A DNA stretch of 64,000 nt from an uncultured Acidobacteriota bacterium (GCA_963709315.1 CAVPWC010000003.1:139969-203968), one strand, 5' to 3'. Shown: positions 30,327 through 34,784, counted from the stretch's first letter. Translations and numbers: made by a program. Notes: a model not told the origin generated them from the sequence alone.

Positions 30327-30488
30327 ATGGCCAAGCGACGCAAAAGAAAAATTCTGGATGCAGGCGTGGAAGCGCGCCGCGCGGCGCGTAATTCAGGAAT
30401 CGCGCCTTCGGCCACGCGCGTGATCGCCGATAAGCGCCAGCGCGCGGCCAAGCACAAGAAAAAGTGGCTTGAGAAGGAAGCGGAGTGA
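30327..30488 (+). CDS. small basic hypothetical protein (53 aa), below the ORF-track cut-off
   Basis: MAKRRKRKILDAGVEARRAARNSGIAPSATRVIADKRQRAAKHKKKWLEKEAE*, followed by a hairpin plus T tract. Confidence 0.6.
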   Translation: MAKRRKRKILDAGVEARRAARNSGIAPSATRVIADKRQRAAKHKKKWLEKEAE

Positions 30489-30521: not shown

Positions 30522-30548
30522 ATTAGGTCCGGACCGGACCTAATTTTT
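30522..30548 (+). terminator. intrinsic terminator-like hairpin (plus strand)
   Basis: ATTAGGTCCG-GAC-CGGACCTAAT followed by TTTT. Confidence 0.55.
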
Positions 30549-30554
30549 CGAACC
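30522..30554 (-). promoter_or_regulatory. candidate bacterial SECIS element
   Basis: Minus strand UGA-GGUUCGAAAA-AUUAGGUCC-GGUCC-GGACCUAAU: stem starts 10 nt after the UGA and the apical loop begins GGUC. Confidence 0.6.
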
Positions 30555-31103
30555 TCACCCAGGCTTGTGGTCGGGAACGGATTCACCGGCGCGGAAAAGC
30601 GCGGCAGGCGCGATTTTCTTGCGGTCGGCCAAGGCGGACGCGATCGATTCCAGGTCTTTCCTGTCAAAACCCATGCAACTGACTTTCACGATGCCATCCG
30701 GCTCGATCAAAAAGATCGTTGGGACATTGGTGAGCCCGTAGGCATTCGACGCGACGTAGCCTTTTTGTTTTTCATCGAGGGCCATCGGGAAAGTTACGCC
30801 GAACTCTTTGGCAAAATCTTTTGTGTCGCGGGCATCGTCTTGCGAGATTCCGAGGAACGTGACGCCGTCGCCGCCATAGCGCTTGTAAAGGCGCTCGAGG
30901 TACGGGAACGTAAATTGGCAGACGGGGCAGGATATTTTGAAGAACGCAGCGACAACGGGGCCGCGCTCGAGCAACCCGGTGAGCGAAACTTCCTTTCCAT
31001 CGAGAGTCTTTAAAGAAAAATCAGGTGCTGTATTTCCGGCAACGATGTTCGTCATGGTCCCTTCCGAACCCATCCAGCGTTTGAGCCGCCGCAAGATTCC
31101 CAT
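30540..31103 (-). CDS. AhpC/TSA/TlpA-like redoxin (CPVC), probable selenoprotein with C-terminal PG-U-GSKN (ends at 30555 if the UGA is a true stop)
   Basis: APDFSL, FFKISCPVCQFTFP, GISQD, LTNVPTIFLI; in-frame TGA 30557-30555 followed by GGT TCG AAA AAT TAG. Confidence 0.85.
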
Positions 31104-31218: not shown

Positions 31219-32496
31219 TCAGTGAATTTGCTTCGTTTTGCGCTGCATGTAATCCATCAACAAATATTGGCCGAGGGTGTAAGGCGTCGTGAAGTAGGCC
31301 TTGCCGCGGCACATCTCGGTGATTTTTTGGACGAAGTGGACCAGGCTGTAATCGCTCGCAAGCATGAACGTGTTAATCATGATGCCCGCGCGCTTGCATT
31401 TGTTCACTTCTTCGAGCGTCTGCCCGACAACGAAAGGATCGAGCCCGAACGCATTTTTGTAGATGCGGCCGTCTTCGAGCGTTAAGGCGGAGGGCTTTCC
31501 GTCGGTGATCATGATGATTTGCCGCATGTCTTTTTTTTGCCGAAGCAGAATGCGTTGCGCCAGGCGAAGTCCTTCGCGCGTGTTGGTGTAGTAGGGCCCG
31601 ACTTGAACGCGGGCGAGTTCGCCGAGAGGGACTTCTTCCGCGCTATCGTGGAATAGCACGAGGCTGAGAGTGTCCCCCGGATATTGCGTGCGAATCAGAT
31701 GCGAGAGCGCCATGGCCACGCGTTTCGCCGGGGTGAAGCGATCCTCGCCATAAAGAATCATGCTGTGACTGCAATCCAAAAGTACGACCGTGGCGCACGA
31801 GCTGTGATATTCGCACTGGTGAACCATCAGGTCCGAATAGGTCATTTCGATCGGAACTTTTGCGCCCTGGCGGCGGACGGCGTTGAAAAGAGTTTCGCTG
31901 ATGTCGAGATTTAGCGTGTCGCCAAATTCGTAAGGACGGGAGATGCCGCCGGATTCGATGCCGGTCGAAAGGTCGCGCGTATCGTGACGCCCGAAACTGC
32001 TCCGGCCCAGCGAACCGAGCAGATCCTGCAGAGTTTTGAAGCCGAGGAAGTCGATTGTTTTGTCCGTGATTTCAAAACGCGCTTCCGGCTGCTTTTCGTG
32101 AGGCTGGCCGACTTGGCCGCGCGCCGAAGTTTGCGGAGGCGGCGTCACTTGCGGCGGTTGCTGCGGGTTGATGAAGCCCTCCTGGGCGAGCCGCTCCATC
32201 AATTTCTCGATGAGATCGCGTATACCTTGGCTGTTTTGCGCGTCGGAATGTTGAAGCATCTCGCGAAGCTCTTCGCTCATTGCATCTTGCGGAAGTAGAT
32301 CGCCCTCCTGCAAGGCGCGAAGGATGGCTTCGCGCAGCGCTTCCATCGAACGGTCGGGGTCCATCGGGGAAACGCCGTAGTATTGCGATTCGAAGCCGCT
32401 TTGCAGGAAAAAATCGCCCATGCGTTTGACGAGCTCTTCCAGATCGACAGCGTCGGCTGGTTCGCCCGTGTATTTTCCGTAGCGAATGAATTTCAT
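31219..32496 (-). CDS. VWA domain-containing protein
   Basis: MIDAS motif [22 protein letters not shown]. Confidence 0.9.
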
Positions 32497-32604: not shown

Positions 32605-34119
32605 TCAGTTGAACTGGCGTCGCGGTGGCCTGCCAGGGTTTTCTCGTTCACGTGGCTCGGGCTGCTTAGGCTTGTCCGCGTAGAAACCGCGTTCCTCGCT
32701 GCGGCCGATGCGGCGATGGGCCCACAGCCCTTCGAGAATCATTTCCGCGGCGGATGCGGCAGCGCCGGCATCCTTGCGGTCCTGGACTCCAAGGCGGCCG
32801 ATGTGTTCCATCAAGCCCTGGATTTTTGAAAGCTGATGGTAGCGGTCGGGAGTTGTGGCAAGCTCGGGAAGTTTCAGTTCGCCGCCGATTTCAAACCATT
32901 GGATCACCGGCTGAAAATTGACTTCGGCGAAATGTTTGCTGAACACTCGCCCGACGGCGGTGCGGATCAGTTCGCGCGCGACGGTGTCGGCGCCTTTAAG
33001 CTCGCCCTCGTATTCGAGTTCGAGTTTCCCGGTGATGGCGGGAAGAGAAGAGTAGACATCGGCGATGCGTGCGACGACGGCTTTTTCGCCAGTACGCGCG
33101 GCGCGCTGCTCGGCGCTGCTTACGAGGCTTTCGAGAGTGGTGATGGGAAGGCGCTGGCTGACACCGGAGCGGCGATCCACGCGCTTATCTTCCCGAGCTT
33201 GAAAAGCAATCTCTTCCACGACGTTGCGAAGGTAAGCGGGAACTTCGACCTTGCGCCCAATATCGCGCGCAACCCAGGCTTCTTGCGCCGTGATGGCCAT
33301 GCCCTCTTCGAGCGTGGAAGGGTAGTGCGTGCGAATTTCCGCGCCGATGCGGTCCTTGAGCGGAGTGATGATTTTGCCGCGCGCAGTGTAATCCTCGGGA
33401 TTTGCCGTGAAGACCAGAAGCACATCGAGAGGCAGGCGCAGCGGGTAGCCCTTAATCTGGATGTCGCCTTCCTGCATGATGTTGAACAAACCGACCTGAA
33501 TTTTCCCCGCGAGGTCGGGAAGCTCATTGATCGCGAAAATTCCGCGATTGGCGCGTGGCAGCAATCCATAGTGGATGGTCAACTCGTCCGAAAGATCGCG
33601 GCCGCCGCGAGCAGCGCGTATGGGATCGACGTCGCCGATAATGTCGGCCATGGTCACGTCGGGCGTCGCGAGCTTCTCGACGTAGCGATGATCGCGGGGC
33701 ATCCAGGCGATAGCCGTGCTGTCGCCCTCGGCGGCGATTTTCTCGCGACAGGCGCGGCAAATCGGGCGAAGCGGGTCGTCGTTGATTTCGCAGCCGGCGA
33801 CGACGGGAATTTCCGGATCGAGGAATTGTGCCAGCCCGCGCAGAATGCGGCTCTTGGCTTGGCCGCGAAGACCCAGCAGAATGAAATTATGGCGTGAGAG
33901 CAAGGCGTTGATGATTTGCGGGATCACCGTGTCTTCGTAGCCGTGCACGCCGGAGAAGAGCGGCTCGTTTTTTTCGATCATGCGCAAGAGGTTTTGGCGC
34001 ATCTCGTTTTTCACGGAGCGTGAAACAGCCTGCGCGTCGAAGTCCGGGATGCGCTTAAGCTCGCCAAGAGTGCGAGCTTTCGGATGCGCTGAAGGTTGCA
34101 ACGATGTGCTCACTGTCAT
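32605..34119 (-). CDS. AAA+ ATPase, Mg-chelatase ChlI/MoxR-like
   Basis: Walker A GLRGQAKS, Walker B variant IFAINE, VFTANPEDY, PLKDRIG; ATG 34119 chosen over the 34308 extension. Confidence 0.88.
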   Translation of the reverse strand: MTVSTSLQPSAHPKARTLGELKRIPDFDAQAVSRSVKNEMRQNLLRMIEKNEPLFSGVHGYEDTVIPQIINALLSRHNFILLGLRGQAKSRILRGLAQFLDPEIPVVAGCEINDDPLRPICRACREKIAAEGDSTAIAWMPRDHRYVEKLATPDVTMADIIGDVDPIRAARGGRDLSDELTIHYGLLPRANRGIFAINELPDLAGKIQVGLFNIMQEGDIQIKGYPLRLPLDVLLVFTANPEDYTARGKIITPLKDRIGAEIRTHYPSTLEEGMAITAQEAWVARDIGRKVEVPAYLRNVVEEIAFQAREDKRVDRRSGVSQRLPITTLESLVSSAEQRAARTGEKAVVARIADVYSSLPAITGKLELEYEGELKGADTVARELIRTAVGRVFSKHFAEVNFQPVIQWFEIGGELKLPELATTPDRYHQLSKIQGLMEHIGRLGVQDRKDAGAAASAAEMILEGLWAHRRIGRSEERGFYADKPKQPEPRERENPGRPPRRQFN

Positions 34120-34163
34120 GAAGCCCCGTTCCGCGTCCCCGGAAAAAGAGGACGCCTCGAATG

Positions 34164-34784
34164 CTAATTCAATGCGTGTCCATTGCCACCGGCGCGCTGG
34201 CGCATGACCCCTGTCTTCTGTAGATGCGGCGCCCAGGCACGGAGATACCCGACGAGCCGTTCCTGACGGTCCCCCTCCGTCCGAAGTTCGAGGATTTGTT
34301 GCTTCCACATCAGGTCCATCGGCAAACTGCCCGCAACAATAAAAGAAAGTTGGGTGGACTGCTCGCCTTCGGTATTTTTGGGATAATCCTCATAAATGAG
34401 CGTGTAGCAGGTTTCGTAGAGCTCGACCAATTCATGCTGCAAGGTTGCGCTGGTTTCGGAGTCTCGGTCTTCAAGATAGTCCACCTGGCCCTCGGCGAGT
34501 GGATTCTCGTCGAAAAATTCAATGACCCGAAATGGTTCACGGCCCACCGCCAGAATGTCCAGAGTGCCATCGGCATTGCGGTTGGCCACCTCGATGATTT
34601 CCGCGCTGCAGCCGACGCGCACAACACCTTTGGGGAGAGCAAGAAGAATGCCGAATTCGGACTTATCCTTCAAGCAGCGGCTGACCATCTCCAGATAGCG
34701 TGGCTCGAAGATGTGCAGAGGAAGGTCCGCGCCGGGGAGAAGAACGACGTTGAGTGGAAAGAGCGGAATGCGATCTGGCCGCAT
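34164..34784 (-). CDS. stand-alone Lon N-terminal (substrate-binding) domain protein
   Basis: IPLFPLNVVLLPG..LPLHIFEPRY..MV, VGCSAEI, KQQILE. Confidence 0.9.
   Translation of the reverse strand: MRPDRIPLFPLNVVLLPGADLPLHIFEPRYLEMVSRCLKDKSEFGILLALPKGVVRVGCSAEIIEVANRNADGTLDILAVGREPFRVIEFFDENPLAEGQVDYLEDRDSETSATLQHELVELYETCYTLIYEDYPKNTEGEQSTQLSFIVAGSLPMDLMWKQQILELRTEGDRQERLVGYLRAWAPHLQKTGVMRQRAGGNGHALN

Follow-up and report, generated by a model that had tools for sequence, protein, structure and literature searches.

An acidobacterial redoxin gene whose C-terminal in-frame UGA very probably encodes selenocysteine

The redoxin gene and its neighbours

The window, that is, the whole 64-kb stretch of DNA from an uncultured soil bacterium of the Acidobacteriota that was analysed, carries on its minus strand an ORF of 182 aa (31103..30558) whose product ends in ...VPDHKPG and belongs to the thioredoxin fold. 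A reading made earlier from the sequence alone (the sequence-only reading) had placed a UGA at 30557-30555 directly after VPDHKPG and had the frame running on through GSKN to a TAG; this description was found to be exact to the base. The features of the locus are listed below with the evidence on which each was assigned.

30540..31103 (-): recoded coding sequence, very probably 187 codons (182 + Sec + GSKN) plus a UAG stop (sequence reading)
30558..31103 (-): annotated, truncated part, a TlpA/ResA-like thioredoxin-fold domain with a C-terminal extension ending ...LFRAGESVPDHKPG (Pfam)
30918..30929 (-): CPVC redox motif, Cys59 and Cys62 (sequence reading)
30555..30557 (-): in-frame UGA, very probably read as selenocysteine, residue 183 (comparison of loci)
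30543..30554 (-): tail codons GGT TCG AAA AAT, Gly-Ser-Lys-Asn (periodicity and switches of the Ser codon)
30540..30542 (-): the true stop UAG, inside the 5' arm of the hairpin (sequence and related loci)
30522..30544 (-): SECIS-like hairpin, with the 5' arm AUUAGGUCC at 30544-30536, the loop GGUCC at 30535-30531 and the 3' arm GGACCUAAU at 30530-30522 (folding and covariation)

The start codon of the redoxin gene is uncertain. An alternative, Met17, lies at 31055-31053; close homologues are mostly called at 182 aa and some at 166 aa from the Met17 equivalent, which is also where distant members of the family start.

On the other side of the hairpin, a convergent ORF at 30327..30488(+) encodes a very basic product of 53 residues (MAKRRKRKILDAGVEARRAARNSG...KKKWLEKEAE) with no Pfam match; it was taken for a real small gene because 73 of 80 related loci retain it and the stop codon varies among them. 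Also convergent and downstream, the segment 27279..30272(+) encodes a 997-residue outer-membrane protein with CarboxypepD_reg and OMP beta-barrel domains, TonB-dependent-receptor-like, the gene of which is syntenic in 62 of the 80 loci and unrelated to the selenoprotein finding. Upstream of the redoxin gene and in the same orientation, a VWA-domain protein (31219..32496(-), about 95% identical in relatives) and a 567-residue ORF (32605..34308(-), no Pfam match at E 1e-3, relatives about 93% identical) form a pair present in 46-51 loci, which gave no clear hint to the function of the redoxin. The annotated GTG start of the 567-residue ORF probably lies too far upstream, since its relatives align only from residue 49-61 on.

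Conservation of the UGA and translation of the tail

A search of 5.8 billion proteins returned 7,730 relatives of the redoxin. Almost all of the top 120 are exactly 182 residues long and end at KPG, as expected from the earlier proposal that standard gene callers truncate the protein, and the shared ending [KR]-[PA]-G is found in about 90 of the top 150 cluster representatives, at identities as low as 37%. The truncated products are named 'TlpA disulfide reductase family protein' or 'peroxiredoxin' (NCBI, JGI).

The codon following this common end was analyzed in the genomes of GTDB species representatives. The close-locus set (78-80 loci) consists of Acidobacteriota MAGs labelled Acidoferrum, Acidiferrum or Acidiferrales; TGA was present at the Sec position in all 78 parsable loci, followed by four codons and a second stop. 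TGA was likewise found in 8/8 loci of a clade that is 43-47% identical, in 4/4 loci linked to selC and in 21 further loci; among these more distant loci are Sulfotelmatobacter, Acidobacteriaceae and other Terriglobia, some Melainabacteria and a single contig that had been binned as Armatimonadota. A mixture of stop codons at the PG end of homologues was the outcome to be feared for the selenocysteine reading; none was mixed, TGA being found in 78/78 close loci and about 32 more distant ones, with TAA or TAG in none of these roughly 110 related loci. As a control, the stops of four neighbouring genes were counted in the same 80 loci and proved mixed (TGA/TAA/TAG 33/9/9, 31/7/8, 10/13/34 and 22/21/27, the last for the small ORF). 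A global reassignment of UGA was ruled out because neighbouring genes terminate at TGA.

Three relatives depart from this pattern. Locus L024 (3532-3591) reads KPG-TGA-NSKN-TGA and is without the GGUC hairpin; locus L240 (950-1070; 37% identity, CGTC motif) reads KPG-TGA-SPRHLRG-TAG and has, directly after the TGA, a hairpin with a CACCU loop that is not SECIS-like; and in protein P0216 Gly stands where Sec is expected (KPG-G-GGAA). Decay, a different recoding signal or an assembly error may lie behind these exceptions. Separately, six loci of near-identical synteny (L009, L025, L061, L068, L070, L077) come from SMAG soil MAGs labelled Verrucomicrobiia, Cybelea, Limnocylindrales, Methylomirabilota, Baltobacteraceae and Eremiobacteraceae. 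They look like mis-binned Acidobacteriota contigs, and for this reason the taxon labels of related loci are used with caution.

The segment between the TGA and the second stop has the properties of a coding sequence. Among the 78 close loci, the tail is GSKN in 47, SSKN in 25 and of other types in 6, and the second stop is TAG in 77 (in the distant clade any of TAA, TGA and TAG occurs). Entropies are 1.5, 1.6, 0.8 and 0.8 bits at the third positions of the four tail codons and do not exceed 0.3 bits at most first and second positions, a three-periodic pattern. All four Gly codons, both Lys codons (AAA/AAG) and both Asn codons (AAT/AAC) are used, and for Ser most loci have TCN and four have AGY. 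The conservation of GSKN in homologues, which the sequence-only reading wished to see checked, is present at the level of the protein, where the tail is kept as x-S-K-N.

A Cys codon (TGC or TGT) occupies the Sec position in about 13 loci, mostly from Melainabacteria/Obscuribacterales MAGs (L083/L242, L084, L243-L246, L248, L249, L251, L252 and L255-L257). Two cluster representatives run past the position with Cys, ending in ...KPG-C-ESKRPA (codon TGC) and ...RPG-C-MSKQPA (codon TGT), and the Cys and Sec forms have the tail motif [U/C]-x-[S/T]-K in common. When genomes were scanned with one Cys representative, a clade consisting mostly of Melainabacteria/Obscuribacterales was recovered, in which about 12 species have TGC and five have TGA. 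The TGA forms of this clade have six-residue tails like those of their Cys sisters (e.g. U-TSKRPA, U-GSKHLA), and each of them forms a hairpin (-8 to -12.6 kcal/mol) whose GGU-containing loop begins about 19-20 nt past the UGA; folding of the TGC forms gave no consistent structure at the position of the hairpin. Alternation between Cys and UGA with a hairpin in the TGA forms only is the classical signature of a selenoprotein family. Cys is thus aligned with the UGA at the exact position in a sister clade, as the sequence-only reading had hoped to see, but the ending PGCGSKN that it gave for homologues was not found as such: the Cys homologues end in PG-C-ESKRPA, PG-C-VSKRPV or PG-C-MSKQPA, and PG-U-GSKN is the ending of Sec forms. 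When the Cys-bearing C-terminal 43-mer was used as a protein query, one match was obtained, itself truncated.

A SECIS-like hairpin and the machinery for its decoding

In the window, a perfect 9-bp stem starts 10 nt after the UGA and its loop begins 19 nt after the UGA; the earlier description of a stem ten nt downstream with a GGUCC loop was confirmed to the base. The hairpin is the MFE structure according to RNAfold, which prefers a 10-bp stem with a GUC loop. As the true stop lies inside the 5' arm, the hairpin extends from the end of the coding sequence into the 3' UTR. Judged by stability alone, it does not stand out (-20 kcal/mol over 76 nt, z = -1.6, with 16 of 200 shuffles folding equally well). 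Two other results indicate that it is more than a chance structure. Firstly, open frames of 80 codons or more are closed by 187 TGAs in the window, both strands counted, and of these only the redoxin UGA is followed by a hairpin of 6 bp or more whose GU-containing loop lies 15-23 nt downstream. Secondly, a covariance model built from a sub-alignment of related loci with uniform geometry has a single match in the window, at 58 bits (E 4e-17), which is the second-highest score among the 74 sources searched.

The hairpin is present in 77/78 close loci, with a loop of the form (G)GUC(N) that begins 19-20 nt after the UGA. In an alignment to the covariance model, with 56 distinct sequences, pairing holds in 94.7% of cells and compensatory changes occur in 4 of 7 pairs; cells with double changes number 25 compared to 6.8 +/- 1.8 in shuffles (0/500 shuffles reach the observed value), and sliding the partners by one column lowers pairing to about 50%. 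In distant clades the stems are entirely different and a GU-containing loop lies at the same distance after the UGA (UCCCGC-GGUC-GCGGGA, GCCGCC-GGUC-GGCGGC, GACGCC-GGUC-GGCGUC, GGUUC-CGUGC-GAACC and CCGGCUU-AGGUU-GAGCCGG). Alignment of 22 diverse hairpins with MAFFT followed by RNAalifold gave no consensus structure because stem and loop lengths differ among them. In Rfam, the window has no match at gathering thresholds, and a search of the region by E-value gave a chance match to PreQ1 only (E 0.37).

Bacterial SECIS elements, as sought by programs of the bSECISearch type, are stem-loops just 3' of the UGA with a G or GU in the apical loop, at a distance like that in fdhF. The redoxin hairpin is a stem-loop 3' of its UGA with a GU apical loop at such a distance. 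The fdhF element of E. coli was read from the MG1655 sequence: its loop is GGUC, as previously stated, and starts 18 nt after the UGA compared to 19 nt here, both hairpins following the UGA immediately. The two differ in that the whole fdhF element lies within the coding sequence, whereas here the coding sequence goes on for only 12 nt beyond the UGA, the stop is in the stem and the rest is 3' UTR; moreover, no bulged U is evident in the redoxin hairpin, for which SelB binding is predicted. These comparisons support the view that the hairpin acts as a bacterial SECIS.

The conserved element could instead be a terminator, shared with or belonging to the convergent gene for the 53-aa protein, with the TGA as a genuine stop. 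That small ORF, retained in 73/80 loci, does end only 34 nt before the hairpin, and on the plus strand the hairpin is followed by TTTTT, which is the complement of the AAAAAY bases of the Lys and Asn codons. A terminator scan, however, flagged the hairpin on neither strand: CCAAGAAAAAC follows it on the redoxin strand and no more than UUUUU-C on the opposite one, so that the structure falls short of an intrinsic (Rho-independent) terminator, in which a U-run comes directly after a G+C-rich hairpin on the transcribed strand. In 20/79 sequences the Lys codon is AAG in place of AAA, a change that breaks the T-run and keeps the Lys. Nor would a terminator account for the TCN/AGY switches of the Ser codon and the three-periodic wobble of the tail, or for a loop that is conserved though the stems change completely, and the clade L086-L092 keeps TGA-GSKN and the hairpin without the small gene. 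Together with an invariant TGA where real stops drift, and with Cys homologues that read through the position, these observations make termination at the TGA extremely unlikely. A secondary role of the hairpin as a terminator for the convergent small gene is possible.

Sec-utilising Acidobacteria are on record (PMC1794560, PMC12013277), and the genes required for Sec incorporation were sought in the window and in related genomes. In three related loci, a gene for tRNA-Sec was detected by ARAGORN and by the Rfam model RF01852 (64-68 bits), 0.25-2.3 kb downstream of the redoxin gene:

L036, 3786-3884: tRNA-Sec gene near the redoxin gene
L075, 5736-5834: tRNA-Sec gene near the redoxin gene
L079, 4326-4424: tRNA-Sec gene near the redoxin gene

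A scan with the invariant 3' half of tRNA-Sec then identified selC in at least 120 genomes, mostly Acidobacteriota, and in four of the scanned selC loci (L143, L160, L179, L195) the redoxin gene lies within 5 kb. Taken together, at least 7 Acidobacteriota genomes have tRNA-Sec at 0.25-5 kb from the redoxin gene, and on CAWDOI010000005.1 the distance is about 10 kb; at least 6 more assemblies in which a TGA form was verified have selC elsewhere, among them CAVXHD01, the assembly of the closest GTDB relative of the window protein (86% identity). The search for selC that the sequence-only reading called for thus revealed that tRNA-Sec and the TGA form of the redoxin gene occur together in at least 13 genomes. 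The 64-kb window itself has no tRNA genes. With SelA, SelB and SelD of E. coli as tblastn queries, no match was obtained in the window or in the short flanks of the Acidobacteriota loci; selA/selB were found beside selC only in loci of the Methylomirabilota/Rokubacteria type, and selD in none of the loci searched. The linkage of selC with the redoxin gene recurs in Acidobacteriota loci with neither selA nor selB adjacent.

The comparative data by themselves indicate translation past the UGA and do not give the identity of the residue. The UGA might be read by a near-cognate tRNA (Trp, Cys or Arg), stimulated by the hairpin, with short and long isoforms being made, and the lack of selA, selB and selD in the Acidobacteriota loci, of which short flanks were searched, is in keeping with this. 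Near-cognate reading is nevertheless highly unlikely, given that the position alternates specifically with Cys, that the loop and spacing of the hairpin are those of the SelB-binding fdhF SECIS, and that tRNA-Sec is present in the same genomes and repeatedly linked to the redoxin gene; in addition, most known selenoprotein families are thioredoxin-fold oxidoreductases (PMC13188914).

It could also be argued that the family is a true selenoprotein family of which the window organism keeps a relic, the Sec machinery having been lost and only the 182-residue protein being made. The window contains no selC or other sel genes, and some relatives look decayed or altered, such as L024 without the hairpin and P0216 with Gly. 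Yet the window copy has a perfect hairpin of 9-10 bp, an intact GSKN-UAG and the second-highest covariance-model score of 74, the assembly of the closest GTDB relative has selC, and 64 kb are far too little for inferring the absence of selC. A relic is accordingly an exceedingly improbable explanation.

We conclude that the UGA at 30557-30555 very probably encodes selenocysteine, residue 183 of 187. The 187-aa reading with an N-terminal CxxC and a C-terminal Sec, as originally proposed, is strongly backed by the conservation of the UGA, the coding of the tail, the alternation with Cys and the hairpin. In the mechanism that we propose, when the ribosome reaches the UGA, SelB carrying Sec-tRNA(Sec) would bind the GGUC apical loop and deliver Sec; the SECIS hairpin would be placed 13-35 nt downstream of the UGA, containing the UAG and running into the 3' UTR; and after Sec, GSKN would be added and translation would stop at the UAG.

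Fold, proposed chemistry and relation to known families

Pfam assigned the window protein to AhpC-TSA (3e-23) and Redoxin (1e-19). Its nearest relatives in the PDB, ResA and DsbE, cover residues 21-150 only (phmmer 1.7e-17). P0257, a natural homologue with Cys at the Sec position, was modelled with AF2; the model has a pLDDT of 97 (90 for the last nine residues) and was grouped by Foldseek with ResA (E 1.6e-12, TM 0.86); in this model the tail is ordered and a beta-turn at K-P-G just precedes the Sec position. The redoxin domain with a CxxC at the N-terminus of helix 1 is that of a TlpA/ResA-like thioredoxin-fold protein. No model of NCBIfam release 20 reaches its cut-off on the window protein (ResA, the best, 81.5 bits vs 170, DsbE 30 vs 123, TlpA 17 vs 230), so that the protein is outside ResA, TlpA and DsbE as defined by these cut-offs, and it is also without the signs of an extracytoplasmic location that go with them. 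The window protein has no hydrophobic N-terminal segment (maximum KD(19) of 0.24 in the first 40 residues), and from this its sequence is that of a probably cytoplasmic protein. ResA, TlpA and DsbE are thus its best relatives in structure and sequence, with the CxxC in the same place, but they are membrane-anchored or periplasmic and have no tail, whereas the redoxin selenoprotein has a 35-residue C-terminal extension carrying Sec. A peroxiredoxin function was discarded for want of a PxxxT/SxxC motif: the sequence FFKISCPVCQ resembles that of ResA and has no T/S three residues before either Cys, and peroxiredoxin models score 17-34 bits against cut-offs of 140-261.

All 92 family members compared have Cys59, and at least 90% of them have Cys62 as well. 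Other residues take the place of the second Cys of the CxxC in several Sec forms (CPTS/CATS in L274, L275, L277 and L278) and several Cys forms (CPVV in L243-L246, L248-L250 and L084), and all of these CPTS, CATS and CPVV variants keep the first Cys and the C-terminal Sec or Cys. As the second Cys can be replaced and the other two residues are kept, the constant pair is Cys59 and Sec/Cys183, a pattern of conservation that points to these two as the essential redox pair. Sec183 would sit just past the tight KPG turn on an ordered C-terminal tail and could form a selenenylsulfide with Cys59, with Cys62 as an optional resolving thiol. The result would be a redox relay with three centres, for which the GCUG tail of thioredoxin reductase in animals offers an analogy. 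A redox relay through a Cys59-Sec183 selenenylsulfide is plausible from these sequences.

Animal thioredoxin reductase has a C-terminal Gly-Cys-Sec-Gly tail, and its SECIS, as in eukaryotes generally, is a distant element of the 3' UTR. Like the redoxin, it combines in one enzyme a Sec on a C-terminal tail near the stop with a distant dithiol centre, and the analogy suggests that electrons may shuttle between the two in the redoxin as well. It is an analogy only: the reductase is a flavoprotein and not a thioredoxin-fold protein, and the redoxin tail has no Cys neighbouring Sec.

A review of May 2026 tabulates 119 prokaryotic selenoprotein families and does not mention Acidobacteria (PMC13188914). 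In its thioredoxin-fold families, Sec lies inside the redox motif (UxxC, UGC, VPGU; PMC13188914). Several of them share domains and fold with the window protein, namely the Prx-like thiol:disulfide oxidoreductase, Redoxin (PF08534, UxxC), the thiol-disulfide isomerase-like family (cd02966, UxxC) and the UGC-containing TlpA (PMC13188914), and these thioredoxin-fold selenoproteins, like the redoxin family, have a predicted redox function and are cut short or split by gene callers (PMC13188914). In contrast to the known thioredoxin-fold families, where Sec replaces a Cys of the N-terminal motif, the CxxC is intact here and Sec is about 120 residues away. The 'star' families (UXX-star 1 and 2, KCU-star, GUXX-star; PMC13188914) resemble the redoxin family in having Sec a few residues before the stop, and in both, therefore, the SECIS must extend past the stop codon; they are unrelated proteins thought to be metal-binding, and NF041114, NF041211 and NF033934 are absent among the NCBIfam matches of the window protein. 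The motif of the redoxin is PG-U-x-S-K-x(1-3)-stop. The inventory of 119 families has no redoxin in which the CxxC is intact and the C-terminus bears a PG-U-x-S-K tail (PMC13188914). As far as this inventory and NCBIfam reach, the redoxin represents an uncatalogued and widespread selenoprotein family whose decoding machinery is probably canonical. A bolder picture, in which this uncatalogued family is abundant, a mobile selenol arm bearing PG-U-x-S-K pairs with the first Cys as a single-domain bacterial counterpart of the Sec tail of thioredoxin reductase, tRNA-Sec forms mini-islands with the gene in several lineages and the SECIS also terminates the convergent small gene, is offered tentatively and is more doubtful than the recoding itself.

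Of the family's thousands of database entries, nearly all are cut at KPG and are without the residue that is likely to be catalytic. The combination of a CxxC with a distal Sec, for which natural Cys and CxxS variants exist, would make a compact system for asking why Sec is used rather than Cys, and a clean bacterial SECIS that lies across a stop codon and the 3' UTR would be useful for training selenoprotein gene finders. As for the organisms themselves, the family implies that Sec is used by non-photosynthetic Melainabacteria and by Terriglobia, both of the Acidoferrales type and others, which rank with the most abundant bacteria of soils.
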